63,971 nt of DNA, filler included, from an uncultured Methanosarcinales archaeon (GCA_964397315.1; 7 parts of 4 records of this genome joined end to end with filler, not necessarily neighbours in it), one strand, 5' to 3'. Numbered from the whole stretch's first letter, positions 1 to 42,879 are shown. Numbers and translations are program-made. Notes: generated from the sequence alone by a model not told the origin.

Positions 1-56
1 GAATAAGTTTTTTACGCCACCAGTCAAAGACTGGTGGAAAGCTCAGCTTCTAAAAC

Positions 57-230
57 CGCACAACTTCCAGCTTTTCTTTCTAATAAGCCCAACCCATAGT
101 TTTGCTCAAGTGCGCGCTATGGGCTTGTGGAGTTGGTGCTCTAAAGTTGTTGTTGGGGGCGGCTGGGCGGGACAAAACAATTGTAACTCTAAAGAGGGTG
201 GAGGCAAATTCTGGAAAGATTACCATTTTT
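57..230 (+). ncRNA. Copy 1 (core only, diverged) of dispersed structured-RNA-like element
   Basis: GCACAACTTCC (58-68), AATAAGCCC (82-90), GTGGAGTTGGTGC, GGCGGG and TTGTAACTCTAAAGAGGGTGG occur in the same order as in copies 2-4; boundaries approximate. Confidence 0.6.
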
Positions 231-313
231 GTTCCAACTAAGGATGGCTTTCTCACCCGCAATATGCTTTAATCCTCCAGAAACATTTAAAAACATGAAA
301 GGGCATTGCCTGC

Positions 314-1183
314 ATGATGGCAGCAGAAAAGAATCCTCTTGTCAGCGTGATAATACCAACGCACAACAGGCCCGCCTACCTTAGAAGGGCTATCGCTTCT
401 GTGCTGCGCCAGTCTTACAGCAGGATTGAAGTCATTGTGGTGGATGACAGCTCTGAAAAGAGAGCAAAGAATAACAACAAGAGGCTGGTAAAGCAGCTCA
501 AGGACAAAAGAATAAGATATCTTCCGAACAGCAGACAGCTGGGGGGAGCTGCCTCAAGAAACAAGGGAGTTGGGAAGTCAAAGGGAGAGCTCATAGCTTT
601 CCTGGATGATGATGACGAGTGGCTCAGGAGCAAGGTCAAAAAGCAGGTTGCGCTTTTCAGGAAATCAAAAGTGAGGAACCTTGGTGTTGTTTACTGCAAC
701 TTTGAGCTCATAGAATACCTCGGAGAGAGGACAGAGAAGCACAGGATAAGAGAAGGAAAAAAAGGCTATGTTCTGAGGGGCCTTCTTGACAGCTTTTGCG
801 TGGGCATAACATCAACAGTGATGGTAAAGCGGGATGTGCTTGAATGGATTGGGGGTTTTGATGAGAGGATGAAATCCTCGCAGGAGTATGACCTTTTCCT
901 GAGGATTGCGGATTATTATGGGTTTGATTTCGTGGACGAGTATCTGGTGAGAAAGCATGAGGACCTGAGCAGGGTGTCCACAGACTTCAGGAACAAGCTG
1001 CAGGGCCTTAACCGCTTCTTCTGGAAGCACAGGAGGAAATACAGGAGGTTTGGTATTGGATTCAGGCTAAAGAGCCTGTTGAGATGGGCGTTCCTTGACA
1101 TGGCCTACCTGATGGGCCTTGTGCTGGGCAACCGCGTTCTGAGGATGCTTAACAGGATTGTTGACATCAGGAGAAAAAGATGA
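314..1183 (+). CDS. Glycosyltransferase family 2
   Basis: VSVIIPTHNR, IVVDD, GAASRNKG, AFLDDDD, GGFDE motifs. Confidence 0.95.
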   Translation: MMAAEKNPLVSVIIPTHNRPAYLRRAIASVLRQSYSRIEVIVVDDSSEKRAKNNNKRLVKQLKDKRIRYLPNSRQLGGAASRNKGVGKSKGELIAFLDDDDEWLRSKVKKQVALFRKSKVRNLGVVYCNFELIEYLGERTEKHRIREGKKGYVLRGLLDSFCVGITSTVMVKRDVLEWIGGFDERMKSSQEYDLFLRIADYYGFDFVDEYLVRKHEDLSRVSTDFRNKLQGLNRFFWKHRRKYRRFGIGFRLKSLLRWAFLDMAYLMGLVLGNRVLRMLNRIVDIRRKR

Positions 1184-1194
1184 TCCAGAAGAGC

Positions 1195-2322
1195 CTATAG
1201 GTTAAGGTCAATGTTCTCCAGCCTCACAGCCTCGTAAAGCCTTGCTGAAAGCACGCTCATGTCTGTTGTGTTCCTCTCCATGAATCCTGTCCTTGTGCTG
1301 AAGTAATGATTCACCTGCTCTGAGGCCCACTTTGATATCTCGCTCTGCAGCTCTTTCCTGCTGATTTTCAGTCCTGAGTATCCTGCAAGGGCCTGAAAGG
1401 AATACGCTGCCTCAATCCCTGTTGGATTGAAGGCCCATGAGTATGAGTTCTTGCCTGATCTCAAGTCAAGAGGGTGATTCCTCCTGAGATACTCCAGCGG
1501 CTTTCTTATGAGGGATTTAAGCCTCCTGTCCTTCCACAGATTAAGGCCTTTATTGTTGTCATAAGCTATTGCGAATCCGTAAGTGTTGAATGCAAGGTAT
1601 CCCCTGCTCCTTTTGTAAGTAAAATTCCCGCTGCCCTTTGACCATTCAATAAACCTTATTAGCGCTTTTCTTATCCTGTGAGCAAGGCTGTCTCTCCTGA
1701 AGGTGTGCTCTATAAGGCCGGGCTCCAGGAACGTGACAATATTCGGAAGGTTTGAGAAGAATGATGAAGCGTCCTCAAGAAGTTTTTTGTTCTTCTTGAG
1801 CTTGGCTATGGTGAGGGCCATTGCCCCAAGCCAGAGCTGGTGGTTGAATGTCTCGTCTATTTTGCCGTCAGTTCCGTCAAGATTCTTTATGTGCCAGAGC
1901 TTCCTCTGCTTATTGAATTTGTGCATTGAGACAATCTCCTCAGCAAGGTCAAGATACTCCTTCTTCTTGAAGTCACTTCCTATGAAGATGAGGGGCTCTA
2001 TTGCCCACGCAGGCCCTATAGTGCCATTTACAGGGTCTGCCTTCCTTGACTTCCTCCTGCAGTGGAAGTTATATCCCTCTGGCCTGTTCTTCTTCAAAAG
2101 AAGAAAATCGCAGGCCTTAAGCGCCGCGTCCCTATACTTCTTGTCTCCTGATATCTTATAAGCCTTGTGCAGGAGCATGGCCACATGGGCTGTGTTCCTC
2201 ACAGGAGTCTCAGCATCATTCCAGGGCCCGTTGTGGCCTGGAGGGAAAGAGCCGTCCTTCTGCTGGATTGAGAGGTAATTGCCTGCAGACCTTAAGATGA
2301 CATCATGAATGTTCTGCTCCAT
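1195..2322 (-). CDS. aglQ: AglQ-like protein (archaeal glycosylation cluster)
   Basis: PPGHNGPW.D.ETPVRNT and TFNHQLW motifs resemble haloarchaeal AglQ; glycosylation context. Confidence 0.75.
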   Translation of the reverse strand: MEQNIHDVILRSAGNYLSIQQKDGSFPPGHNGPWNDAETPVRNTAHVAMLLHKAYKISGDKKYRDAALKACDFLLLKKNRPEGYNFHCRRKSRKADPVNGTIGPAWAIEPLIFIGSDFKKKEYLDLAEEIVSMHKFNKQRKLWHIKNLDGTDGKIDETFNHQLWLGAMALTIAKLKKNKKLLEDASSFFSNLPNIVTFLEPGLIEHTFRRDSLAHRIRKALIRFIEWSKGSGNFTYKRSRGYLAFNTYGFAIAYDNNKGLNLWKDRRLKSLIRKPLEYLRRNHPLDLRSGKNSYSWAFNPTGIEAAYSFQALAGYSGLKISRKELQSEISKWASEQVNHYFSTRTGFMERNTTDMSVLSARLYEAVRLENIDLNL

Positions 2323-2396
2323 AAGATAAGCCCACAGCCCAAGATTATTTAAATGTTTAGGATAGATTTATATAAAAAAAGGGATAAGTGCCTGCC

Positions 2397-3374
2397 ATGG
2401 CAAGAAAGCCGTCTATAAGCGTGTGCATACCCAACTACAATTATGGCAGATATCTTCCCCAAACTATTAATTCTGTCCTAAACCAGAAGTTCGGTGACTT
2501 TGAAGTCCTTGTTATTGACAACAGGTCAGAGGATAATTCTGTTGATGTTGTAAAAAGATTTGAAAAAAAGGACAAGAGAGTAAGGCTTATCATCAATGAG
2601 AGGAATGTTGGAATGGCAGGTAACTGGAACAAGTGCCTTGAACACGCTTCAGGTGAATTCCTTCTCATACTTAATGCAGATGATTTCCTGCATCCCGGCA
2701 TGCTGCAGAAGCTACACTCTGCAGCTCAAAAGCATAATGCTGACATAACCTTCTGCGACAGGATAAGGTATATAGAAGATAAGAACAGGTATTCAAAATC
2801 AAAGAGCTTATACAAGTCTTCAGGCATTATAAGCTATAAAAAAGTTATTAAAGACCTTTTTACAAGGAACAAGATGATAATGGTCGGCTCTTTCCTGGTG
2901 AAAAGAAAGATAATAAACACGCGATTCAATGAGAAATTCAGGCAGATAGGGGACATGACATGGCTGATGAAACTTCTCATAAGCCTCAGGAGAGATCCTC
3001 ATTACATAAAAAAGAGTATGCTGTACTTCAGGGTGCACTCAAGCAATATAGGCCTTCCTACAAATCCTGAAAAGTATGAAAGGATTCTGAGGGAGAGGGC
3101 CATGGAGTATGGGGAAATCAAAAATGCAAAAGGCTTCAGCAGGATGAAGTGGCTTTTCAGGCTCTACAAGCCAAGAAGGGATGTTGATCTTTTTATCCAG
3201 TTTGTTCTTGGGACGGGGGTGGTGCACCACAGAATAAAAGATATGCTCAGGAACTGGAGCTTGTGGATCAGTAAGTATTTCAATCCTCTCTATCTACCCA
3301 TATATCCCTGGGAGTTCATCTTCCTGGCATCAAGAACGCTGTTCAGGAAGATTGCAGAAAGAGGGTCTAAATGA
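2397..3374 (+). CDS. Glycosyltransferase family 2
   Basis: ISVCIPNYN, DNRSEDNS, NVGMAGNWN, LNADD. Confidence 0.93.
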   Translation: MARKPSISVCIPNYNYGRYLPQTINSVLNQKFGDFEVLVIDNRSEDNSVDVVKRFEKKDKRVRLIINERNVGMAGNWNKCLEHASGEFLLILNADDFLHPGMLQKLHSAAQKHNADITFCDRIRYIEDKNRYSKSKSLYKSSGIISYKKVIKDLFTRNKMIMVGSFLVKRKIINTRFNEKFRQIGDMTWLMKLLISLRRDPHYIKKSMLYFRVHSSNIGLPTNPEKYERILRERAMEYGEIKNAKGFSRMKWLFRLYKPRRDVDLFIQFVLGTGVVHHRIKDMLRNWSLWISKYFNPLYLPIYPWEFIFLASRTLFRKIAERGSK

Positions 3375-3396
3375 GCTATTTTGATATATATTCAGA

Positions 3397-4113
3397 TTAA
3401 TACTTAAATTCTTCCTCAAACCTTTTGAGGGATTCTGGAGTGCCGAATTCCCAAACCTCTGTGGAGTGGTCCAGCATTATTTTCTTTCCGGAGTTTATAA
3501 GCTCGTTGTAGGCGGGCCCCACATAAAATTCATTGTTGGTTGTTATGCCTTTTTCAATCATCCTTTCAGCTGCCCATACAAAGTCGCTTCCCTTGCTGAA
3601 GTGGTACATTCCTACTGTAGCATGGATTGAGATGGGCTTCTTCTCAGCAACCTCAACAACAAATCCGTTCTGGCCAGTTTTTGCATAGCTGAATCTTGGA
3701 TTGCGTGACTCAAATACTGTAATTATGCCGTCAATGTCCCTCTTTTGCAGGGTCTCCTGCAGGTCTGACCTGAAGAATGTGTCTGTGTTGAATATTATGA
3801 GGGGCTCTGGCTTGTTAATATGCTCTTTCGCCAGCAGTACAGTGCAGGCCTGCCCTCTTGTTACATTCTCAACAGGTATTATGATACAATTTGGGTATCT
3901 CTTTTTCAGTTCCTTGTCAATATTGTGCTCATCAATGTGCTCTTTCAGGCATATGAATATGAGGGTTTGCTTTTTCAGGTCAAGGAAATCAAAGCTTTTT
4001 AGCGCCCACTCAAACATTGGCCTGTCTTTGGCTTGAATCAGGGGCTTTGGGATGTTCCAGCCAGCCTCAAGAAATCTTCTCCCTTCTCCTGCTATTGGGA
4101 TTGCGATTATCAT
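3397..4113 (-). CDS. Nucleotidyltransferase-fold capsule biosynthesis protein
   Basis: IPIAGEGRRF..PKPLI, TRGQACTV, AEKKPIS, NNEFYV, FGTPE. Confidence 0.85.
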   Translation of the reverse strand: MIIAIPIAGEGRRFLEAGWNIPKPLIQAKDRPMFEWALKSFDFLDLKKQTLIFICLKEHIDEHNIDKELKKRYPNCIIIPVENVTRGQACTVLLAKEHINKPEPLIIFNTDTFFRSDLQETLQKRDIDGIITVFESRNPRFSYAKTGQNGFVVEVAEKKPISIHATVGMYHFSKGSDFVWAAERMIEKGITTNNEFYVGPAYNELINSGKKIMLDHSTEVWEFGTPESLKRFEEEFKY

Positions 4114-4472
4114 TTTTCTTTCGCCATCTTCTTGAGGAAGTTCTCATCTATCTTTTCCCAGTCCTCAAACCTTATTGACCTGTCACAGATGTAAATCTCA
4201 GCGTTGGGCCTGCCGAAAATGAGTTCATCATAGGGTATGTCATGCTTTTTCAGCCATTCCCGGGTTATGTCTCCAACTCTTTTTTCAACAAGAGAGACAT
4301 CACCATTGCAGGTTTTCATGTGCCTGGCTGAATGAATTATAATGTAGTGCCCCTTACTCTTGAGGTCCTTGATCTTTTCAACAGCCCCTTTTTTGGGCAT
4401 CACATCAGCGTAGCTCCCCCCTTCCTTCTTAAGCTCGCTTATTGTCCCGTCAAGATCAATCACTATTCTCAT
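4110..4472 (-). CDS. HAD-family capsule biosynthesis phosphatase (EcbF/BcbF-like)
   Basis: IDLDGT, HSARHM, IPYDELIFG; overlaps both neighbours. Confidence 0.85.
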   Translation of the reverse strand: MRIVIDLDGTISELKKEGGSYADVMPKKGAVEKIKDLKSKGHYIIIHSARHMKTCNGDVSLVEKRVGDITREWLKKHDIPYDELIFGRPNAEIYICDRSIRFEDWEKIDENFLKKMAKEK

Positions 4473-6096
4473 CAAGCACCTCATTGAGTATTCTTATGGC
4501 GTTCAGGTACATTGCGGTCTGCTTATCCCTGCTGTCATTGTGTAGAGGGATCATTGAGAGGAAGAGCAGGCCCTCTATAAATCTTACTGTTTTTAGGTCC
4601 CATCCATAGTCCTTTAACATGCTTGTGAAGATCTTTTTTATTTCTTCTGTGTTGCTGTTGGAGTATATCTCAAGCTTGTACTGTCCCTCTGCTTTTTTGC
4701 TGACGCTGAAAAGGTTGTTGATTATAAAATCATATTTCCCCTCCACAGAATGGAGGAGCTTTGCAAGATCATACCTTATATCCCCATGTATGCCCTCCCT
4801 GCCAAAGGAGCCTCTGGGGTCAACAAGCTTCATAACCCTGTTGTTCAGGTCATAAAGAATGTTCGGAAAGCACAGGTCGCCATGGATTATAGTGCAGTTC
4901 CTGGAATCATAAAGGCTGCCTGCAAATTCAAGTATTTGCTTCTCCAGGAGGGGATAATTTTTCATTTCAACCCCGTTTATTGAGATCCTCTCTTCTGAAA
5001 GAAGTCTCTTGAATTCCCTGTCCTGCTTCAGCTTTTCTGTCCTTCTTTTAGTCTTTTCAACATACATATCATCAAAATGCTTCCTGTCCAGTTTTCCCTT
5101 GTGGCTGCTGAATATCTCAATAACCTCAAATATGTGCCTGAAAACAGACCTCCACAAGTGCAGAGGAAGGTTCTCATAGACAAAATAGTCGCTTAAGGTT
5201 GTATAGCCATAATACTCCATCTTCACCCACATATCATTATCTTCTAATGAAAAGTCTATAACCCTGGGAGAGAGAACTTTCAGCTCTTTCGGAAGTGACA
5301 GGTACCAGTTTATCTCGTTCCTGAACTTGGACGATTTCCTGCTTTTCTTAGTGAGCACTCCAAGGACATCATCAACATCAATTGTGTTGAACTCCCTGGA
5401 CTGCAGCAGCCTCTTTTTTGACCTGTAATAATTATCTATGTTACCGCAGTCAAACCACTGCTCAACCCTTTCAGCATGGATTCTATGCTTGCTCATGTAG
5501 TAGTCCAGCGCAAGGCTTATCTCATACTTCCTTTCATCATCAGAGCTGATTGCGCGCTCAATACACTCAAAAAAGAAAGGCGCATCCCTCAAGTAATACA
5601 CGCCAATCAATGCATTAGGCTGCTTGTCATAGTTTTCAGGCTTGTCAATAAACCTGCTTACAGTCCCGTCAGGGCCAGCCTCCACAAGACACCACCTGCG
5701 ATGCTCATCTGTCTCAGAATAAAGCACAAAATCCCTTGACAAATCCATATCCTGCCTGAATATGGTATCGCCAAGAACAACAAGAAGATCGCCTGTCATC
5801 TCAAGCTTTTCAGCTGCTTTTATGGAGCAGGAAGGGCCTGCCATACTATCGGGCTCTGTGAACCTCACGCTCATCTTCCTGCTGTAAACCCTTTTTACGT
5901 AATCAACCAGCTTCTCCTTGTTCTCCTTCACCACCAGAATAACATCCGAAAAACCGCTCTCATAAAGGTAATCCAGAATCCACCCTATCACGGGCTTGCC
6001 ATTAAGGGGCACCATGGATATGTGAGTATTGACATCAAAAGGGACAATCTTGTTCCCGTCTGATTTCGCGCATGGTATTACAACAGTGGGTTTCAT
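4456..6096 (-). CDS. NTP-transferase-like domain fused to aminoglycoside/choline-kinase-like domain (capsule biosynthesis)
   Basis: N-terminal GDTI, DKP, WFDCG; C-terminal HGDLCFPNIL, LVDPRG, YDLAKL. Confidence 0.85.
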   Translation of the reverse strand: MKPTVVIPCAKSDGNKIVPFDVNTHISMVPLNGKPVIGWILDYLYESGFSDVILVVKENKEKLVDYVKRVYSRKMSVRFTEPDSMAGPSCSIKAAEKLEMTGDLLVVLGDTIFRQDMDLSRDFVLYSETDEHRRWCLVEAGPDGTVSRFIDKPENYDKQPNALIGVYYLRDAPFFFECIERAISSDDERKYEISLALDYYMSKHRIHAERVEQWFDCGNIDNYYRSKKRLLQSREFNTIDVDDVLGVLTKKSRKSSKFRNEINWYLSLPKELKVLSPRVIDFSLEDNDMWVKMEYYGYTTLSDYFVYENLPLHLWRSVFRHIFEVIEIFSSHKGKLDRKHFDDMYVEKTKRRTEKLKQDREFKRLLSEERISINGVEMKNYPLLEKQILEFAGSLYDSRNCTIIHGDLCFPNILYDLNNRVMKLVDPRGSFGREGIHGDIRYDLAKLLHSVEGKYDFIINNLFSVSKKAEGQYKLEIYSNSNTEEIKKIFTSMLKDYGWDLKTVRFIEGLLFLSMIPLHNDSRDKQTAMYLNAIRILNEVLDENSD

Positions 6097-6243
6097 CTGT
6101 TATGATATTCTGATGTTATTTTATAAATTTTTCTGCAAACCCCTTCTGTCGGCTCGCACGTTCCTGCAAAGAGGTCTCACAGGAGGATTAAACAGAGTAT
6201 GCCATTCAATAAATTTTTATAATCAGACAGGATTTTGACCTTA

Positions 6244-7632
6244 ATGGCAAAGAACATCTTCCTCATAACAATAGACGCCCTGAGGCCTGACCACCTGAAT
6301 TGTTATGGGTACAGGGAGAGGAAAACAAGCCCTTTCATGGACAGCCTTGCTGAGAAAGGGGCGTTGTTCAGGAACTGCTTCTCAACAGGCCCTTATACCT
6401 CTCCGTCATTCTGCTCTATTCTTGCGGGAATATACCCTCTGCAGCACGGCCATTTCATGCCGCTTCCGAATCAGGCTGTACTTGTGAGCGAGGCTCTGAA
6501 GAAAAAAGGCTACAGGACAATTGCAATTCACTCAAACCCATATCTTTCAAGATTCTTCGGCTACAGCAGGGGATTTGACATATTCAGGGAGTATGAGTCA
6601 AAGACTCCTGTCATGAGGCTGAGCCAGAAAATAACCAGGATTTTCGGGCCTGAGAGCCTTGTTTACAGGGCTTCTGCACTCCTGTTCCACAAACTGTTCT
6701 CCCCCATTCTCAGCAGGGTGAAGAGCAGGGATGTCAATGTGTCATACACAAGAGCTGAAAAGCTCAAAAGAGACACCCTGGATATACTGAAGAGCCAGAA
6801 GGCTGACAGGGTCTTCTGCTGGATGCATTTCATGGACACTCACGCACCTTACATGCCTCCGGAGAGCATTCTTGAGAGGAACAAGGCAGGCATGAAAAGA
6901 AAGAGGATTGAAGAGCTGAACAGGATGCAGGCAGCAGCAAAGAAAAACAGGGATACAAGAATCAGTAAAAAGAATCTTGAGGGCCTGAAGCTGTTGTATG
7001 ACAATGAGATAAGCTATGTGGACAGCCAGCTCAAGGACTTCTTCAAAAGCCTTCCTGAGAGGTACAGGAAGGACAGTGTTTTCATTATAACAGCTGACCA
7101 TGGGGAGGAGTTTTTTGAGCATGGCATGACAGACCATGAGGACCTGCCTTATGACGAGCTTTTGAGGGTTCCGCTTATAATCTATGGAAGGGATGTCAGG
7201 AAAAAGGGATACAATGGGCTTGTGAGCACAATAGACATTCCCAGCACGATACTGGACATTGCAAACGCAGAGAGGCCTGCCGGATACAAGGGAAAAAACC
7301 TTTTCAGGGAGAGCAGGGATTTTATCATTGGCCAGACCCTCATACAAAAGGAGGAAATAAAATATGCCTGGCATTCCCTCAGGGATGTGAAGTTCCAGAA
7401 GAGGAACTTTCACAGGCTGGACTTCTACAGGGACAGCAAGCACAAGGCAATGCTCTCTGAGAAGCGCAGTCTGATGTTTAACCTCAGAAAAGATCCGCTG
7501 GAGAAAAAGAACATTTATAATGACAAGGAGGCTGCGGGAATAAGGAAAAAGATAAAAGAAGAGGTTTCTGCCGGAGAAAAGGATATGATCAAGCAGGCAG
7601 TTGAAAGCTTAGCAGGAGATCCCAAGTTCTGA
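6244..7632 (+). CDS. Sulfatase-like alkaline phosphatase superfamily protein
   Basis: LITIDALRPD, YTSPSF, HFMDTHAPY, TADHGE, VPLI. Confidence 0.9.
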   Translation: MAKNIFLITIDALRPDHLNCYGYRERKTSPFMDSLAEKGALFRNCFSTGPYTSPSFCSILAGIYPLQHGHFMPLPNQAVLVSEALKKKGYRTIAIHSNPYLSRFFGYSRGFDIFREYESKTPVMRLSQKITRIFGPESLVYRASALLFHKLFSPILSRVKSRDVNVSYTRAEKLKRDTLDILKSQKADRVFCWMHFMDTHAPYMPPESILERNKAGMKRKRIEELNRMQAAAKKNRDTRISKKNLEGLKLLYDNEISYVDSQLKDFFKSLPERYRKDSVFIITADHGEEFFEHGMTDHEDLPYDELLRVPLIIYGRDVRKKGYNGLVSTIDIPSTILDIANAERPAGYKGKNLFRESRDFIIGQTLIQKEEIKYAWHSLRDVKFQKRNFHRLDFYRDSKHKAMLSEKRSLMFNLRKDPLEKKNIYNDKEAAGIRKKIKEEVSAGEKDMIKQAVESLAGDPKF

Positions 7633-7636
7633 AACT

Positions 7637-8920
7637 TCACATGTAGCCGAGATTCTTAAGCCTTTCTGCAACAATCTTTCTCTCTTTTTTACCTAGTTCG
7701 CTGCCCCTTGTTTTGTCTTTTGACTTGATTTTATTAAGTTTTTTTCTCATTTCTGAAGCCACATTATCCTTGTCCTTTAATATGTTCCTCGTCTCGTGAG
7801 GATCGTTCTTTAAGTCAAACAGGAATTCCTCATTACTATAATTGTCTGCCCTGCGGCCGTATTTGTACCTCTGGCCCCTTATTCCGTCTCTCATGACTTC
7901 TTTTTTTCCATCGCTCCGAACAACGGGAGCTAGTGCCACAACATCCTTGTTTTCTCTTTTGTAAGATGGAGGGAGGAGAGAATCGCCTGTTGACTTCTGC
8001 TTTGGAAAGCCCATATAATCAATCAGTGTGGGAAAAAGGTCTATCGTTCTTACATTACTCTTAACTGTCTTTTTTGGGAATCCTTTTCCGTGGAAAATGA
8101 GGGGCACGTTCATCAGAAAATCATAGATGTGATATGAGTGCCTGAGCCATTCCTCTGGCTTGCCGCCGTCCCTCATCATTTTCTTATCATTCTCAGTTAA
8201 CCTCTCGTCCAGTCTCTCGCCGTGATCCCCGGTTATGACAAGAACATCAGGGCCCAGTCTTTTCACGATATCCTCAGCAACAGTCTCAATGTGCTTTACG
8301 CTCTTGATGTATTTGGGCGAGTATTTTCCTCCTGACGGAGGGCTCGCTCTCCTGTACAGTCTCTGCACAGGCTTAAAAATGCCCGCTCTCCTGAGGAGGT
8401 TCACGGCAGAAAAGCTAAGCTTTTTCTTCAAAAGCCTTTTTCTTGAGCCTGTAAAGAGAGGATAGTGGGCTGCCCAGAAGTGAAGCATGACAAACCACGG
8501 CTTTCCTGACTTCCTGACCCTGCTTATTATCCTTTCCTTGGTTTTTCCATGGATAAAGTCAAACTTCCCCCTGTACTCATAAAGGTCAAATCCTTTTGAG
8601 ATACCTGTCTCCTTGACAAGGGGGCCTGTCACAAAAGCCATTGTTGAGTAGCCCCTGCTCCTGAAGATCTCAGGAAGGGTTTTTACATTGCCTGCCAGCT
8701 TTTTGTTCAGCACGCCATTAAGCCCGTTCTCAAAAGGGTATTTGCCTGTGAGGATGGAGCCAAAACTGGGGGTGGTGCAGGTTGCAACAGTCATTGTGTT
8801 TGGAAAGTAATAGCTGTTTTTTATAAGGCGTCTGAAATATCCTGACTTTGAATCAAGGCCGGAGAAAACATCCTCTCTCATGCAGTCAATGACTATAAAA
8901 AGCACATTTGGTTTTTTCAT
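7637..8920 (-). CDS. Sulfatase-like alkaline phosphatase superfamily protein
   Basis: IVIDCMRED, CTTPSF, GDHGE, FDLKNDPHE, RLKNLGY. Confidence 0.9.
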   Translation of the reverse strand: MKKPNVLFIVIDCMREDVFSGLDSKSGYFRRLIKNSYYFPNTMTVATCTTPSFGSILTGKYPFENGLNGVLNKKLAGNVKTLPEIFRSRGYSTMAFVTGPLVKETGISKGFDLYEYRGKFDFIHGKTKERIISRVRKSGKPWFVMLHFWAAHYPLFTGSRKRLLKKKLSFSAVNLLRRAGIFKPVQRLYRRASPPSGGKYSPKYIKSVKHIETVAEDIVKRLGPDVLVITGDHGERLDERLTENDKKMMRDGGKPEEWLRHSYHIYDFLMNVPLIFHGKGFPKKTVKSNVRTIDLFPTLIDYMGFPKQKSTGDSLLPPSYKRENKDVVALAPVVRSDGKKEVMRDGIRGQRYKYGRRADNYSNEEFLFDLKNDPHETRNILKDKDNVASEMRKKLNKIKSKDKTRGSELGKKERKIVAERLKNLGYM

Positions 8921-8980
8921 AGACTATAAAACCCTACGTATGATATATAAAGTTTTCGGGCGGATTGCCCAAAAGCAGTA

Positions 8981-10507
8981 TCAAATGTTTTTGCCCCTTA
9001 TCCTGTCAAACAGAAGGGTCCTTATTATATACTTTACCTCGCTTATCCTTACTGCCCTGAAGAGTATGACAAGTGCTGAATATGCAAGAAGGCCTGCTGC
9101 CAGCACAAGAGGGGCTTCTATGTACCACCTGTTTATCAAAAGAGCCTCTTTAACGAAGTAAAGGACAGCAGTAAAGATTATGCCTGCTATTATGCCTTTC
9201 ACCCAGCCAAGATAGGGCAGCCTTATCCTGTGCTTGTTTATCTCTACAGAGGACATGACAAGCACAAAGAGGTAGCATAGCATTGTGGTGAGTGAAGCCC
9301 CTACAGCGCCGTAAAGGGGTATCAGCAGGAAGTTCATTACAAGGTTTATGGAAGCTGCAATGAGCATGAACCTTGATACAATCCCTGGCTTTTCAAGCGC
9401 GTAAAAGAAGGAATTGTTTATCAGCGTAATGGTGAAGAAAAGATTGGCTATTGCGAGTATGGCCAGCTGGAGGCTGCCTGCCTCGTACGAGCTGCCGAAC
9501 AGCACCCTGAGCACAAGAGGGGAATAAAAGACCATTATCAGGGCAAGGGGTATCACCAGGACAAAGAAGTATTTCTGCACTATCTCATACATCCTCACTG
9601 CATCAGGCATTTTCTTTTTTGCTATCAAAGAGGCTGCCATGGGCGTCAGCACAAAGGCGAATGCCTGAGGGATTATCCTCATCGCCTCTGCTGTGGGGAC
9701 TGCTGTCTGGTAAATGCCCACTTCATGCAGTGTCCTAAAGAAGGAAAGCATCACAGTGTCTGTGTATGTGATTACCCTGCCTCCCACGAGTATGAGCAAC
9801 ACAGAGAAACCATAAGTGAGGGTCCTTTTGAAGAGCTTTCTGCTCCAAGCAGATTTAACACTTGTGAAATCCGGGAACAGTCTTCTCAGGAATATTATGG
9901 TGGAGCCTGCAAAAACAAGGAAAAATGAGATTATGTAGGAGAGTATTGCAGCGGTAACGCTGCTTGTCTTCATAAAGAGAAGAAGGGCGAATATCAGTAT
10001 GAGCGCGTTCTTTATGAAGTTTGACAGGGTGAAGTAGTGGGATCTCTCAAAGCCTATGAAAAGGAACTTGTAGAACCTTTCCATATTGTGGAGTATGAGA
10101 AGCACGGCAAAGAGTATTATGAGCATTGACGCTCCGCTCCTGTGGAAGTAGGCCTTTGAGAGGAAGCCTGAGAACATAACCATCAGTACAGCTATCAGAA
10201 GGGAGAGGCAAGTCTGGAAGACCAGGAGCATTCCTGTGAGGTTCTTTATGTCAGATTTCCTTTTTTTTGCCCTGAACTCTGCTATGAACTTTTGCATGGA
10301 CGAGGAAGTGCCCAGGTCAGCGAAAATCACAATCAGGCTTATCAAGGCTATTCCTGCATAGAAAAGCCCGTAATCATCCGCTCCCAGCTTTCTTGCGAAC
10401 AGTATCCTTATCAGGTAGCCCAGAAGAGATGCCAGCATTGCAAAAAAGAAGACAATCACAGCCTGATTCACTGCTTTGCGGGCGTAGCTCATTTTACTGC
10501 TTTCCAT
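8981..10507 (-). CDS. Wzx-type oligosaccharide flippase
   Basis: Many hydrophobic segments; ARKLG.DDYG, TDTVML, VGIY, LIPLYGAVGA. Confidence 0.92.
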   Translation of the reverse strand: MESSKMSYARKAVNQAVIVFFFAMLASLLGYLIRILFARKLGADDYGLFYAGIALISLIVIFADLGTSSSMQKFIAEFRAKKRKSDIKNLTGMLLVFQTCLSLLIAVLMVMFSGFLSKAYFHRSGASMLIILFAVLLILHNMERFYKFLFIGFERSHYFTLSNFIKNALILIFALLLFMKTSSVTAAILSYIISFFLVFAGSTIIFLRRLFPDFTSVKSAWSRKLFKRTLTYGFSVLLILVGGRVITYTDTVMLSFFRTLHEVGIYQTAVPTAEAMRIIPQAFAFVLTPMAASLIAKKKMPDAVRMYEIVQKYFFVLVIPLALIMVFYSPLVLRVLFGSSYEAGSLQLAILAIANLFFTITLINNSFFYALEKPGIVSRFMLIAASINLVMNFLLIPLYGAVGASLTTMLCYLFVLVMSSVEINKHRIRLPYLGWVKGIIAGIIFTAVLYFVKEALLINRWYIEAPLVLAAGLLAYSALVILFRAVRISEVKYIIRTLLFDRIRGKNI

Positions 10508-10564
10508 GAAAGAGACTATATAAAGTTTTTGCAGGAAAAAAATGGGATTGTGGGGGAGATAATG

Positions 10565-11030
10565 AGTTTATGATTATTATTCCTGATACTTCCCAGGGGA
10601 TTGATGAGCTTATAACTCCTGGTACTTCCCAGAGAGGATAATGGGTTTGCGATTATTATTCCTAGCACTTCACTCCCTTGGGAGGCTGATATTTTAGTTT
10701 TTACAGCTCCAGATTCCACCCACCCTTTCTGCAGAACCATCCCTCAGGTTTACACATTCCAAAACAGCACAATTCCCCGCTTCTCTCACCAATAAGCCCA
10801 CCCAATGATATGCTTAAAGTGCTCTGTGGAATTGGTGCGATTAGCATATTGAAGGGGGAGGAGGGATCTATCCATCTGTAACTGCGACTGGGGTGGAGGA
10901 GAACTCAGGAGAAATTCCCCTTTTTACAATGAGCAGTATCTTTAACTCATAAACAGGGCGGCGGCAAACTCTGTAGGAATAGGGATTTAATCACCTATTA
11001 GATCCTCTAAACAGGGCGCCTGCCGCCGAT
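10565..11030 (+). ncRNA. Copy 2 of dispersed structured-RNA-like element
   Basis: Core AATAAGCCCACCCAATGATATGCTTAAAGTGCTCTGTGGAATTGGTGCG from 10791; stem TATTCCTA (10657-10664)/TAGGAATA (10974-10981); boundaries approximate. Confidence 0.7.
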
Positions 11031-11050
11031 AAGCCTACCCAGCAACATGC

Positions 11051-11512
11051 TCAGGAGAGCAGGCTGACGAGCTGGGGGTCAGCCATAAAGCCCTCCTTTT
11101 TTATTTCCTCAAGCACAAAGTACTGCTCAGGAGACCTCACCTTGTACTTGTCCAGCCCCTCAACAAACTCATGAACCTCCTTGATGTTCCTGAACAATGC
11201 CTCTATCATGAAATCATAGCCGTTGTTTATCCTGTATACTGAATTGACAAGAGGCTCCTTGAGAAGGTATTCCCTGAATGCCTCCCTCTGGTCCTTTGGG
11301 ACTTTGAGCGCTATCTGCACCCTGACATCATAGCCGAGCTTTGAGAAATCCAGCAGGGCAGTGTGCTTCTGTATGAGGTCCTTCTCATACCTCTTTATCC
11401 TGTCAAATATTGTTGAGACAGGCATTCCTGTCTTTTTGCTCATGCTCGTGAGGTTCATCCTCGCGTTCTTCCTTAGGTGGGACAGTAGCACAAGTTCTTT
11501 TTTTTGTAGCAT
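11051..11512 (-). CDS. Lrp/AsnC family transcriptional regulator
   Basis: LRKNAR..LT.MSKKTG.PVSTI HTH, LDFSKLG; GGAGGTG RBS before ATG 11512. Confidence 0.92.
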   Translation of the reverse strand: MLQKKELVLLSHLRKNARMNLTSMSKKTGMPVSTIFDRIKRYEKDLIQKHTALLDFSKLGYDVRVQIALKVPKDQREAFREYLLKEPLVNSVYRINNGYDFMIEALFRNIKEVHEFVEGLDKYKVRSPEQYFVLEEIKKEGFMADPQLVSLLS

Positions 11513-11618
11513 TTGGAACACCTCCATTTTGTTCGGAATAACAACATTATAGGCAAAAGATTTATATATAACTAACCTCTATAAGTTATATAACTAATAT
11601 AACAGGTTGATATATAAG

Positions 11619-12366
11619 ATGAGAAGAAAGCTCGTGAAACAGGGCAGGAACGCCCTCACAATAACCCTCCCAGCCACCTGGACAAAGAAATTCGGCCTAA
11701 AGGCAGGGGATGAGGTTGAGATTGAGGAGGAAGGAAGGAGTGTGATAATTGGGGGGCAAGGGGAGGGCAGGCCAAGAAAAGCTTCAATAGACTCCACAAA
11801 AATAAGCGAAAGGGTTCTCAGATGGTTTCTGTCAGGCCTTCACAAAGGAGGTTGGGATGAGATAGAAATATTATTTGATAAAAAGGAGACTCTTGATGTA
11901 ATAGATGACCTGATAAAGAATCTCCTGATGGGATTCGCTGTTGTAGAGCAGACAGGCAGCAGATGCCTGCTGAAAAAGGTTTCTATGGACATGGACACAG
12001 AGTTTGACTCCATACTTAGGAGAGCCTTTCTCGTAACAATAGCTATGGGAGACAGCTGTATAAGCATGATAAGGGAAAACAAGCTGAAAGAGATGAAAGA
12101 TTTGATAAGTTTGGAAAAAACCAACAACCAGCTGACCAACTTCTGCGAGAGAATACTGAACAAGAAAGGATATAAGGACAATGACAAAACATGCTTTGTC
12201 TATGTGATAGCATGGAATCTGGAGAAAGTCTGCGATTATTACAAGTATGTATGCGAGTACCTTTCAGACAATCCTGATGCAGAAATCAAAGAGGACGTGC
12301 TTAAGATGATGGAGGAGGCAAACAACCAGATAAGAAGCTACAATTCCTTGTTTTCCAAATTCAAAG
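11619..12366 (+). CDS. phoU: AbrB-PhoU phosphate uptake regulator (3' truncated by contig end)
   Basis: RKLVKQG..ALTITLP..W...GLKAGDEV AbrB domain followed by PhoU helices (LEKVCD). Confidence 0.85.
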
Positions 12367-18064: not shown

Positions 18065-18545
18065 AGGTATAACAAGGTCATGATCATTATTCCAGGTGAT
18101 TTCTGTAAGAGGGTATGCTTATTATTCCTGCTACTTCCCGCTAATCTGGTGAGATCATATCTAAGTTGGTAAATCCTGGTTACTCCCACCCTTAATACAC
18201 AACCGTCCGGCAAGTTAGTCTCTTCTGCAACAGTACAACTTTCCACTCCTGTCTCCAATAAGCCCTCCCAATCATATGCTTAAAGCGCTCTCTGTGGCTT
18301 GGTGCGCTAAGCATAATAAAGGGGTCTAATAATCCCAGACGAGCTTGCGAGTCGGGATTATTTTTAGGCGGGCAAAGCGATTGTAACTCTAAACAGGGTG
18401 GTGGTAACACCAGGAAGATTCATTATCTTTATACAACAACCGGGAGGAGTTAATAATATTAGATTGGAATGCTCTGTGTGCTGGGAACATCTGGAGGAAC
18501 TCCCATTTGTACAATGAATAACAGCATAATGAGTGTGCCATGTCT
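18065..18545 (+). ncRNA. Copy 3 of dispersed structured-RNA-like element
   Basis: Core AATAAGCCC at 18257; hairpin ATGCTT-AA-AGCGC...GCGCT-AAGCAT; stem 18174-18192 with 18395-18415; 5' end may be cut by contig edge. Confidence 0.7.
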
Positions 18546-21793: not shown

Positions 21794-21887
21794 CGCCCCA
21801 GGGCAGACTCGAACTGCCGACCTCGCGGTTTCTCTCAGCTGAAAACAGGATAACAGCCGCGCGCTCCGCCTACTAAGCTACTGGGGC
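21794..21887 (-). tRNA. tRNA-Asn(GUU) with canonical 37/38 intron
   Basis: GCCCCAG acceptor, CGCGG-CT-GTT-A[~21 nt]A-CCGCG, TTCGAGT T-loop. Confidence 0.9.
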
Positions 21888-26116: not shown

Positions 26117-26204
26117 CGGGCCCGCAGGGATTTGAACCCCGGACCTTTCGGTCTCTCTTCAGAGTTAAGAGCCGAATGCTCTAGCCAGACTGAGCTACGA
26201 GCCC
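26117..26204 (-). tRNA. tRNA-Lys(CUU) with canonical intron
   Basis: TTCGG-CT-CTT-A[13 nt]A-CCGAA, TTCAAAT. Confidence 0.9.
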
Positions 26205-40399: not shown

Positions 40400-42298
40400 T
40401 TACTCTTTAGCCCCAACCTCCTCCCTCATCTCCTCCAAAAACTCCTCAACCTTCTTCTCGCCGTGCACCTTGTTGTCCCTTGTCCTTATGTTGACTGTTC
40501 CTGCCTTCTGCTCATTATCCCCCACTACCAGTATGTAGTTGATCTGCTGCAGCTGCGCGTCCCTCACCTTCTTTGATGTTGATTCTGCCCTCATGTCAGT
40601 CTCAACCCTTATTCCCGCGTCAAAAAGCTTCTTCCTCACCTCCTCCGCGTAATCATGGTGCCTGTCCGCTATTGGCAGCACTGCTGCCTGCACAGGGCTC
40701 AACCATAGGGGGAACTTTCCTGCGTAATGCTCAATCAATATGCCGATAAACCTTTCAAAAGAGCCGAGGATTGCCCGGTGTATCATCACAGGAGTCTTTT
40801 TTGTTCCGTCCTTTGCCTCATAAGTTGCATCAAACCTCTTGGGCATTGAGAAGTCAACCTGTATCGTGCCGCACTGCCAGTTCCTCCCTATCGCGTCCTT
40901 GATGTTGAACTCTATCTTTGGCCCATAGAATGCGCCCTCTCCCTCTTTTATCCCGTAATTCACCTTTCTCTTCTTTAGGGCGTTCTTCAGCGCTTTGGTG
41001 GCCTTCTCCCATGCCTCATCAGAGCCTATGTGCTTGTCAGGCTTTGTGGCAATGTAAGTCCCCACCTCATTGAAGCCGAACATCCTGTAAAGGTCAACAG
41101 CATAATCAACCATGTCAATTATCTCATCCTCAACCTGCTCCTCTGTGCAGAAGGAATGCGCGTCATCCTGCGTGAAGGCCCTCACCCTGAACAGTCCTGA
41201 CAAGACTCCTGAGAGCTCGTGCCTGTGCACGTATCCGAACTCAGCCCTCCTGAGGGGCAGCTCCCTGTATGAGTGTATTCTGGTTTTGTATATCAGCAGG
41301 CCGCCGGGGCAGTTCATGGGCTTCACTGCAAACTCCCTGTTGTCAATCTTTGTGAAGTACATGTCATCCTTGAAATTGTCCCAGTGGCCTGAAACCTTCC
41401 AAAGTGAGGAGTCAAGTATTGAGGGAGTCATTATCTCTGTGTATCCTCTTTCCCTGTTCTTTTTCCTGGCCAGGCTGAAAAGCTCCTGGAATATCACCAT
41501 GCCCTTTGGGTGCCAGAATGGCATTCCCGGAGCCTCGTCATGGAATGAGAAAAGGTCAAGCTGTTTTCCTATCTTCCTGTGATCCCTCTTTTCTGCCTCT
41601 TCCATCAGCCTGGTGTATTCCTTGAGCTCTTTCTGGGTGTAGAATGATATACCATAGATCCTCTGCAGCTGCGTGTTCCTGGCATCGCCTTTCCAGTACG
41701 CTCCTGCAAGCTTTGTAAGCTTAAACGCCTTTATCATTCCTGTTGAGGGAAGGTGAGGGCCCCTGCAGAGGTCTACGAAATCCCCCTGCTTGTAGGCGGA
41801 GATGCTGCCTTCCATCTCGTTTATCATCTCAATCTTGAACCTGTTGTCCCTGAAAAGCTCAAGAGCCTGCTTTTTAGTGAGCTCAATCCTCTCAAAAGGC
41901 TTATCCTTGTTTATTATCTCCTGCATCCTCTTCTCTATCTTCTTCAGGTCATCAGGATGGAATGGAGGGTGGTCAAAATCATAGTAGAATCCCTCCTCAA
42001 CAACAGGGCCTATGGTGGGCTTTGCCTCAGGAAAGAGCGAAACAACAGCTTCTGCAAGGACATGGGCTGTTGAGTGCCTCAGGATATCAAGAGACTCCCT
42101 GTCTCTTGTGGTTATTATCCTCAGAGAGGAGTCCTTGTCAACAGGCCTGCTAAGATCAACCATCTCGCTGTCAAGGTAGGCTGCAACCGCCTCCTTTGCC
42201 AGCCTCGGGCCTACTGACTCTGCAATCCGCCTTATGGAGGTTCCTTTTTCAAATTTCTTTCCTGAATTGTCAGGGAAGGTTACCTTTATCTCAGCCAT
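40400..42298 (-). CDS. thrS: Threonine--tRNA ligase (bacterial type with TGS and editing domains)
   Basis: HSTAH, DLCRGPH, RDHRK, KPMNCP, FTQDDAH, IHRAILGS. Confidence 0.97.
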   Translation of the reverse strand: MAEIKVTFPDNSGKKFEKGTSIRRIAESVGPRLAKEAVAAYLDSEMVDLSRPVDKDSSLRIITTRDRESLDILRHSTAHVLAEAVVSLFPEAKPTIGPVVEEGFYYDFDHPPFHPDDLKKIEKRMQEIINKDKPFERIELTKKQALELFRDNRFKIEMINEMEGSISAYKQGDFVDLCRGPHLPSTGMIKAFKLTKLAGAYWKGDARNTQLQRIYGISFYTQKELKEYTRLMEEAEKRDHRKIGKQLDLFSFHDEAPGMPFWHPKGMVIFQELFSLARKKNRERGYTEIMTPSILDSSLWKVSGHWDNFKDDMYFTKIDNREFAVKPMNCPGGLLIYKTRIHSYRELPLRRAEFGYVHRHELSGVLSGLFRVRAFTQDDAHSFCTEEQVEDEIIDMVDYAVDLYRMFGFNEVGTYIATKPDKHIGSDEAWEKATKALKNALKKRKVNYGIKEGEGAFYGPKIEFNIKDAIGRNWQCGTIQVDFSMPKRFDATYEAKDGTKKTPVMIHRAILGSFERFIGILIEHYAGKFPLWLSPVQAAVLPIADRHHDYAEEVRKKLFDAGIRVETDMRAESTSKKVRDAQLQQINYILVVGDNEQKAGTVNIRTRDNKVHGEKKVEEFLEEMREEVGAKE

Positions 42299-42344
42299 GC
42301 AGTCCCCCTAATATATTTTATATATAAAGGTTGCTGTATTAGAG

Positions 42345-42830
42345 TGGTGTTTAGACACGCCATGGGTGTTGTGCAGAGGGCGTGCAAATTAATAAAGCTG
42401 ATAAATGTTCTGGTGTTGCCAGTTCCCAGAGCATTATATAAAATTTCTAAGTCCTCCTGACACTGCCTCCACGCTGTTTATTAGTTCTAAGAATGATGCT
42501 CGTCTTAAAAGAGGGAATCCTCCTGATTTCTCCACCGCCCCAGTCGCAGTTACATCTGGATAAATCCCGCCCCCCGCCCCCTCACACATGCTTAGCGCAC
42601 CAACTCCACAGAGCGCTTTAAGCAAATCATTGGGTGGGCTTATTAGGGGCAGGAGAGTGTAGTTGTGCGGAGACAGAATCAGATAACCAGAGGGTGGTTC
42701 TGGAGTAAGGGAGGGAAGCATCAGGAGTTACTAACCTAAATCTCATCTCACCAGATTGGAGGGAATTACCAGGAGTTATAAGCATAAGCCAAAACTCACA
42801 AAAGGGATTGCCAGGATTTGCAGCAGTTTA
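42345..42830 (-). ncRNA. Copy 4 of dispersed structured-RNA-like element
   Basis: Minus strand reads AATAAGCCCACCCAATGATTTGCTTAAAGCGCTCTGTGGAGTTGGTGCGCTAAGCAT (core starts 42644); CTCCTGAT/ATCAGGAG and CTCCTGGTA/TGTCAGGAG stems; TTTATAA ~25 nt upstream. Confidence 0.7.
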
Positions 42831-42879
42831 AGGCTGAGTTTCCATAACATTTATAAAAAACAGGGATTTTTTCATTTCC

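Follow-up and report, generated by a model that had tools for sequence, protein, structure and literature searches.

A mosaic intergenic DNA repeat of BOX-like architecture with variable-number arm modules in a putative Woesearchaeota-type archaeon

Introduction

The REPs, BIMEs, and REPINs of proteobacteria are GC-rich palindromic hairpins that are mobilised by RAYT Y1 transposases, and the Neisseria intergenic mosaic elements (NIMEs) are built on short inverted repeats of the dRS3/RS type. Repeated subterminal binding sites exist for some transposases. The boxB unit of BOX elements is roughly 45 nt long. BOX elements are described from Streptococcus pneumoniae and S. suis as an ordered series of boxA, n tandem copies of boxB, and boxC, with extra box types in S. 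suis (PMC3049150). According to that report, BOX has no proven transposase and about half of its insertions are common to all strains; NIMEs are mentioned there as well (PMC3049150).

The stretch of DNA analysed here (63,971 nt, hereafter the window) consists of pieces of a 61-contig, 1.47-Mb draft genome (G000, 93% complete), joined by N runs with TTAATTAATTAA linkers. We take the host to be a DPANN, Woesearchaeota-type archaeon. DPANN genomes are very small and gene-dense, and the literature that we searched held no description of the present mosaic family or of another composite intergenic repeat in DPANN archaea. The original prediction held that the arms of a repeated element at 10570-10730 are built from degenerate modules whose number varies, with unrelated sequence between them, and that these modules either bind protein or oligomerise, or form a repeat-spacer array that is processed into guides.

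Results

Recurrent modules in the arms of the element

Copy 2 of the mosaic element (window 10558-11050, plus strand) lies in a 543-nt intergenic gap (10508-11050), where it fills the space between a Polysacc_synt (Wzx-type) gene (8981-10507, minus strand), whose start faces the element, and an Lrp/AsnC regulator gene (11051-11527, minus strand), whose stop faces it. The region 10570-10730 corresponds to its 5' arm, and the four 21-mers quoted for this arm were all found there (10574-10594, 10610-10630, 10653-10673, and 10701-10721). A 5' weight matrix was derived from the innermost modules of 66 copies, copy 2 excluded. In copy 2 it scored at 10576, 10612, 10655, and 10703; successive modules are 36, 43, and 48 nt apart, and the distance from the last of them to the core motif is 86 nt. 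All four modules are on the plus strand. The first, which is the outermost at matrix level (10576-10595), contains TCCWGRTWCYTCCC with 0 mismatches at 10581-10594, and the second (10612-10631) and the fourth, innermost one (10703-10722) were detected both by the matrix and by a mismatch search with TCCWGRTWCYTCCC. The third (10655-10674), a degenerate TCCTAGCACTTCAC, was detected by the matrix and missed at ≤2 mismatches, its unit at 10660 being too degenerate for TCCWGRTWCYTCCC. At this threshold the window contained 14 matches to TCCWGRTWCYTCCC versus 6.37 ± 2.46 expected, a number reached in 0 of 100 shuffles, and all seven matches at ≤1 mismatch fell inside copies 2, 3, and 4. Tandem Repeats Finder reported no array at 10400-11150 because the units are less than ~70% alike. 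The motif also recurred over the larger set of copies: genome-wide, the 5' matrix gave 186 matches of at least 14 bits versus 10 in a reversed-genome control, and the 3'-arm unit gave 140 such matches versus 9. The repeated arm units of the original prediction are thus real and above chance.

The core anchor of copy 2, CCAATAAGCCCACC, is located at 10789-10802 (plus strand), and the innermost 5' module is always 85-87 nt ahead of the core motif. The 3' arm was expected to hold two to three units. The 3' matrix assigned two of them on the plus strand, at 10888-10913 (of the GGGGTGGAGGAGAACTCAGGAG type, with TGTAACTG just before it) and at 10953-10978 (of the AAACAGGGCGGCGGCAAACTCTG type), and a third, partial one was found at ~11007. 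A second, partial core-like motif on the plus strand, CCGATAAGCCTACC, at 11026-11039 adjoins the Lrp/AsnC stop codon. In the region 11026-11062, this partial core-like motif (GATAAGCCTACCCAGCAACATGCTCAGG) overlaps the last Lrp/AsnC codons, and the nucleotide match of the gene to its G001 and G004 counterparts does not extend over the last ~7 codons.

Three further copies are present in the window. Copy 1 (1-260, plus strand) is cut off by the contig start and shows the core motif at 80 and a 3' module at 193. Copy 3 (18068-18500, plus strand) and copy 4 (42440-42830, minus strand, between two divergent promoters) both read as two 5' modules, the core, and two 3' modules, plus one degenerate outer module; the three units predicted for each of them thus correspond to two matrix-level modules and one that was recognised as degenerate by eye. 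Copy 3 additionally holds a short remnant of a nested hairpin module, TAATCCCAGACG...GTCGGGATTATTTTTAGG, at 18330-18368 (plus strand). At copies 2 and 4, the TATA-like boxes of the neighbouring genes sit outside the element.

Some features of the surrounding DNA may be recorded here. A surface-polysaccharide block, from a glycosyltransferase gene to the Wzx-type gene, lies between copies 1 and 2 (1-10534) and is common to contig C5 of the genome G007 with 75-80% identity; in both genomes it is flanked by elements at both ends. The Wzx-type gene had no match in the four same-genus genomes searched, and the block may be a transferred island. At the two loci that were compared (10508-11050 and 42296-42871), gene order differs from that of related genomes exactly at the element-bearing gap, and contig ends of the G000 assembly often fall inside elements. 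Rfam identified only tRNAs in the window at gathering level, four of them with lengths of 88-114 nt. Introns are present in tRNA genes of G000, and ARAGORN called two intron-bearing tRNA genes at 26117-26204 and 21794-21887 as 'tRNA-Stop (tta)' and undetermined; these odd calls are probably intron-containing archaeal tRNAs misread by the program, not suppressors.

Ordered blocks of variable number

BLAST with copy 2 detected 72 cores in G000, and a sequence-only covariance model of the core built from 63 copies (R1) gave 81 core matches at about 76 loci. The element totals 38 kb, or 2.6% of the genome, and all G000 loci are intergenic. Its architecture is evident: 79 of the 79 loci with at least two features read (5' module)n, core, (3' module)m on one strand. 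Some loci hold two elements head to tail, joined via a fixed linker. Unit number was counted at 43 complete single-core loci away from contig ends and varied among the copies in both arms, as the original prediction had stated, with n ranging from 1 to 7 and m from 0 to 3. There were seven loci with one 5' module, 18 with two, 8 with three, 6 with four, 3 with five, and 1 with seven, while 3' modules numbered zero at 7 loci, one at 17, two at 15, and three at 4.

The 5' unit is ~45 nt long and begins with a 20-nt module, for which 199 modules gave the consensus nATAAYTCCWGGTRCTTCCC. The spacing of successive 5' modules clusters at 41-42 nt (34 cases), 45 nt (33), and 48 nt (21). Still weaker module copies are often found upstream of the first scored module, and the 5' arm fades out without a sharp end. 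The core of ~170 nt contains the invariant islands CACAACT, AATAAGCCCnCCC, ATGCTTAA, and GGGGG. It is followed by zero to three G-rich 3' units, some of which contain hairpins. For each block there are a few alternative versions, which the copies combine in different ways.

Mosaicism and rearrangement inside the element

The sequence between the modules proved to be shared among copies rather than unrelated. As many as 94 of the 109 inter-module segments matched another copy at ≥80% and all 109 did so at ≥70%, versus 1 and 11 of 109, respectively, in the shuffled-segment control. The segments fall into about ten recurring classes, some of which are letter-identical in a dozen copies and some of which nearly always adjoin the innermost module. 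One version of a 25-nt segment is letter-identical in many copies and is nearly always found in the unit adjoining the innermost module. Pairwise identity over the 2145 pairs of 66 copies had a median of 0.64 and a maximum of 0.92, with no pair at ≥0.95. Mosaicism was also evident in the association between sites: normalised mutual information was 0.259 for sites 1-5 nt apart and only 0.070 for sites 121-220 nt apart, compared with 0.064-0.073 after permutation, and linkage fell to background within about 100 nt. Since linkage decays to the permuted level, alleles ~100 nt apart in one copy are independent, a pattern expected from repeated short-tract exchange or from modular assembly.

A hairpin in the 3' arm, GGGATT-loop-AATCCC, is present in 17 copies with identical flanks, and its 11-nt loop is in the flip orientation in 8 of them and in the flop orientation in 9; examples are found at C1:97438 and C1:128195 of G000. 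The loop looks as if it had been inverted by recombination or template switching. In addition, a module of ~180 nt with five hairpins is present in 7 copies at one fixed site, between GGAG and GGCGGGA, at C1:38499-38684 (L123:60-245) of G000 and in 6 further copies. Identity among the inserts is 95.6-98.9%, while their host copies differ up to the junction, and 2 of the 7 share the same internal deletion. The hairpins are near-perfect and have loops of 4 nt, the predicted energy being -81 kcal/mol over 220 nt, and the module had no Rfam match. Of the 17 family genomes, 5 contain sub-modules of the hairpin string. Their identity of 78-91% is above that of the neighbouring genes, and they range wider than the mosaic element itself. 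The flip/flop hairpin and the fixed-site hairpin insert show directly that DNA-level rearrangement takes place inside the element. Another idea, that the 5' units are internally deleted mini-elements, was rejected, as their tails aligned with the remainder of the element no better than shuffled ones did (3.8% above the shuffled 95th percentile).

It is probable that the family is a composite, non-coding, lineage-specific intergenic DNA repeat of the BOX/BIME/NIME kind that is shaped and maintained by recombination at the DNA level. We infer the recombination mechanism from the patterns described above; contigs of three metagenome DNA runs, compared over 8000-12366, break inside the repeat and showed no joint and no variant in length or presence at copy 2. 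The family would persist and diversify as DNA: unequal or slipped recombination would add or remove arm units, dispersed copies would swap short tracts and so shuffle the block versions, and smaller hairpin modules would be inserted into fixed sites. Copy number would have risen in G000.

Distribution, conserved positions, and a possible host function

The distribution of the element is clearly restricted. Among the 17 genomes of the family, R1 gave 81 matches in G000, 12 in G007, and none in the other 15, including four of the same genus; nor did it give any, with stricter filters, in 150 further genomes sampled from the order. A pattern scan of the genomes of 185,579 species gave 5 loci in one further Woesearchaeota MAG record and three single matches in bacteria. 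For two of these bacterial loci, agreement with the model was limited to the surroundings of the pattern (12.5 and 15.8 bits), and the third gave no match. Metagenome contigs yielded 8 pattern matches, all of which fit the model only around the pattern (10.8-15.2 bits), and viral contigs yielded 0.

The G007 copies have the same layout as those of G000. Of eight G007 loci, seven have a recognisable flanking gene in G000, and in six of these seven the G000 homologue is located 23-333 nt from an element, window copies 1 and 2 included. The positional partners are not nearest relatives (rank 30-71 of 72, identity 0.49-0.64), with flanking genes at 75-85%. The gap upstream of a shared membrane-protein gene contains an element in G000, and in G001 and G007 it is ~130-150 nt long and, by eye, element-free. 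Element remnants were not detected near homologous flanks in same-genus genomes even with filters off, and no exact filled/empty pair could be aligned because gene order is broken at each locus examined. The picture is that of an old family, whose places persist while its sequence is continually reshuffled and whose copy number is about seven times higher in G000.

Stable positions and invariant islands in copies that are otherwise ~60% alike would also fit a host function. According to this alternative, the modules would be putative site arrays for a lineage-specific DNA-binding protein and the copies would be retained at constant positions in the chromosome for their usefulness, be it in chromatin organisation, in insulation, in the control of recombination, or the like. 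Several observations are consistent with it. The 5' module has near-invariant positions (TC..G.T.CTTCCC; C in 97-98% at four positions and T in 94-95% at two, over 199 modules), and the modules, located on one side of the core, repeat strictly in direct orientation. In the core anchor, ATAAGCC is shared without change by 63 of 63 aligned copies, the same islands recur in G007, and 6 of 7 G007 loci are positionally shared. When the 5' arms of six copies were folded on the element strand, z was -2.02, +0.99, -0.39, -0.02, -0.72, and -0.25, so that five of the six arms were without an unusual fold (-0.72 to +0.99). The arms are therefore sequence modules and not hairpin arrays, and the ordinary single-strand fold of these five suits sequence-specific recognition better than hairpins. 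It is plausible from the sequence features that the modules serve for protein binding or oligomerisation, and we would infer any protein recognition from the same features.

The orientation of the loci was examined with respect to neighbouring genes and to each other. Among 54 loci with both flanks called (crude ORF calls), the neighbouring genes were opposite/opposite at 15, same/same at 15, divergent at 15, and convergent at 9. The element thus shows no preferred orientation towards genes. A role as a fixed-orientation promoter or 5'-UTR was rejected, since downstream genes were co-oriented in 35 cases and opposite in 30 (genome-wide, crude ORF calls). In favour of a host function, 9 of 9 element loci on the 155-kb contig C1, including window copies 1-3, point in the same direction. 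However, when a tie of orientation to replication was considered, the run test over adjacent loci of all contigs was not significant (28 same versus 15 different, p = 0.066), and orientation of the G000 loci correlated neither with GC skew nor with gene-strand bias.

Other findings also speak against a host function. No candidate binding protein was identified, and the absence of the element from 15 of the 16 other family genomes and from the 150 sampled in the order means that no general cellular role need be assumed. Parts are lost in single copies: 7 of 43 loci lack a 3' module, and the G007 copy upstream of a wzx-like gene lacks the core motif. That positional partners are not the closest relatives is likewise unfavourable. 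We therefore regard a host cis-element as an unlikely explanation that nevertheless deserves consideration. A more specific and rather more doubtful proposal is a clade-private chromosomal system, in which a lineage-specific protein would be recruited to arrays of directly repeated 20-nt sites and oligomerise there, at about 76 fixed intergenic places kept across two genera, while the sequence between the islands would be reshuffled and module number would tune site strength.

No support for a conserved RNA fold

The elements could instead be expressed non-coding RNAs or RNA-level cis-regulators, the islands forming a scaffold and the variable cassettes providing specificity. Conserved islands combined with variable segments, as in guide-type RNAs, and clear hairpins in some blocks are in line with this, and the plus strand of whole copy 2 had a somewhat more favourable fold than its shuffled versions (z = -2.67, with 2 of 100 shuffles as good), which the minus strand had not (z = -0.94). 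Comparison among copies argues the other way. RNAalifold returned no consensus pair from 63 aligned cores. For 27 candidate pairs, chosen by eye and from the alifold run, covariation was 0.045 versus 0.043 after shuffling, with 134 of 500 shuffles as high; pairs changed on both sides numbered 4 versus 4.7 expected, and one-sided changes break pairs. A search of Rfam with copy 2 and 20 cores gave nothing meaningful even at E up to 1-5. Moreover, the variable segments are shared among copies rather than unique, and the orientation of the element is independent of the neighbouring genes. Nothing supports a conserved RNA fold, and function as RNA is improbable. Pairing between the arms, as an RNA stem or as terminal inverted repeats, was also rejected: a rough complementarity is apparent between the innermost 5' module and the first one of the 3' arm, yet the two vary independently, and the 5' matrix misses the opposite strand of the 3' arm.

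Search for a mobilising enzyme

We also considered a classical MITE, that is, a deletion derivative moved in trans by a transposase that would recognise the arm modules as multiple sites. The elements are multi-copy, intergenic, and non-coding, one of the two carrier genomes has about seven times as many as the other, and some transposases do use repeated subterminal sites. A Woesearchaeal genome, maybe of another organism, is placed among the most MITE-dense archaea, with 105 per Mb, in a bulk MITE census, which was the closest publication that the literature searches gave (PMC11602168). The hallmarks of such an element were, however, not found. On the opposite strand of the 3' arm, the 5' matrix reached 8 bits in only 1 of 76 copies, and the arms are therefore not terminal inverted repeats. 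When the 5' boundaries of 59 loci were lined up, neither a target duplication nor a common, sharp end was seen. Near-identical copies are absent (none at ≥95%), and the outer 5' modules are more degenerate than the innermost ones (mean matrix score of 20.4 versus 23.7 bits), which is the opposite of what a transposon terminus needs.

The Y1 transposase of G000 did not match either. It is encoded by a single IS200-type gene (136 aa, C20:6959-7306, L019:1462-1872), which is flanked by the hairpins CGACCTTTAGGTCG and CCCCAACCTTTAGGTTGGGG, unrelated to the mosaic element. An ORF adjoining this gene resembles a DDE transposase when read by eye. No TnpB-type domain was found in G000, and about 1.5 kb of DNA around the Y1 gene of either G000 or G007 gave no match to the mosaic modules. 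G007 has one Y1 gene, and so do three of 15 element-free relatives. An IS200/RAYT-like Y1 transposase was rejected as the mobiliser, its ends being unrelated and its phyletic match weak (2 of 2 carriers versus 3 of 15 non-carriers). Among the Y1 and TnpB-type candidates of G000, there was thus no mobilising enzyme with matching ends. If the element is mobile at all, movement as a classical MITE is very unlikely.

A CRISPR-like array whose spacers are processed into guides, as also proposed originally, can be dismissed with near certainty on sequence grounds: short repeats are indeed interspersed with other sequence at fairly even spacing, but the recurrence of the inter-module segments (94 of 109 at ≥80%, 109 of 109 at ≥70%) removes the repeat-spacer reading in that unique spacers are lacking, the repeats are degenerate rather than near-identical and give no Tandem Repeats Finder array, the period of 41-48 nt is short, only 1-7 units each are spread over about 76 loci, cas1 was not found in G000 (PF01867, 0 matches; 93% complete), and the element, whose inter-module sequence was to be compared with viral and mobile DNA, had no match in phages, plasmids, or viral contigs.

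Discussion

The family described here offers a compact natural case of probable short-tract recombination between dispersed repeats, of variable-number arm modules, and of hairpin modules inserted at one particular site. The commitment of 2.6% of a small genome to one non-coding repeat family is unlike the compactness of DPANN genomes. Element copies coincide with contig breaks and gene-order differences, which matters for assembly and for genome comparison. If it is true that the modules bind protein, the family would represent a new archaeal chromosome-organising or regulatory system.

When tested against what defines MITEs, REP/BIME-RAYT systems, CRISPR arrays, and structured RNAs, the element fell outside all four by the features examined. 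With MITEs it shares that it is short, non-coding, multi-copy, and mostly intergenic, but a search for terminal inverted repeats, target duplications, and near-identical recent copies gave none. The likeness to BIMEs, REPs, and REPINs is closer and includes mosaic motif combinations, intergenic location, lineage specificity, abundance, and hairpin blocks in both orientations. However, the arm modules are not palindromic hairpins and no GTAG-type tag was seen, and the Y1 gene of G000, unlike that of a REP/REPIN-RAYT system, is of the IS200 type, with unrelated hairpins and no modules nearby. As in NIMEs, the mosaic arrays between genes consist of a short conserved repeat in alternation with longer segments, which belong to a limited set of families, whereas the short repeats of Neisseria are inverted, those of the mosaic element are direct, and the latter has a long unique core.

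BOX differs in that its variable module stands between two terminal boxes that are inverted-repeat-like and pair in the predicted RNA fold. The mosaic element has a constant core, and its variable modules lie outside this core as arms. Neither arm is an inverted copy of the other, the inner 5' and first 3' modules do not covary, and a consensus fold has no support. Since the hosts are an archaeon and streptococci, the two are likened by architecture, and sequence homology is not expected. In architecture the agreement is broad. The mosaic element has ordered box types with a tandem module of variable number (79 of 79 loci, n = 1-7), and like BOX it is composite, non-coding, and intergenic, with ordered boxes of which one is a variable-number tandem (PMC3049150). 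Both are without a proven mobilising enzyme, many insertions of both are stable in place, and in both systems further box variants are present in a related lineage (PMC3049150).
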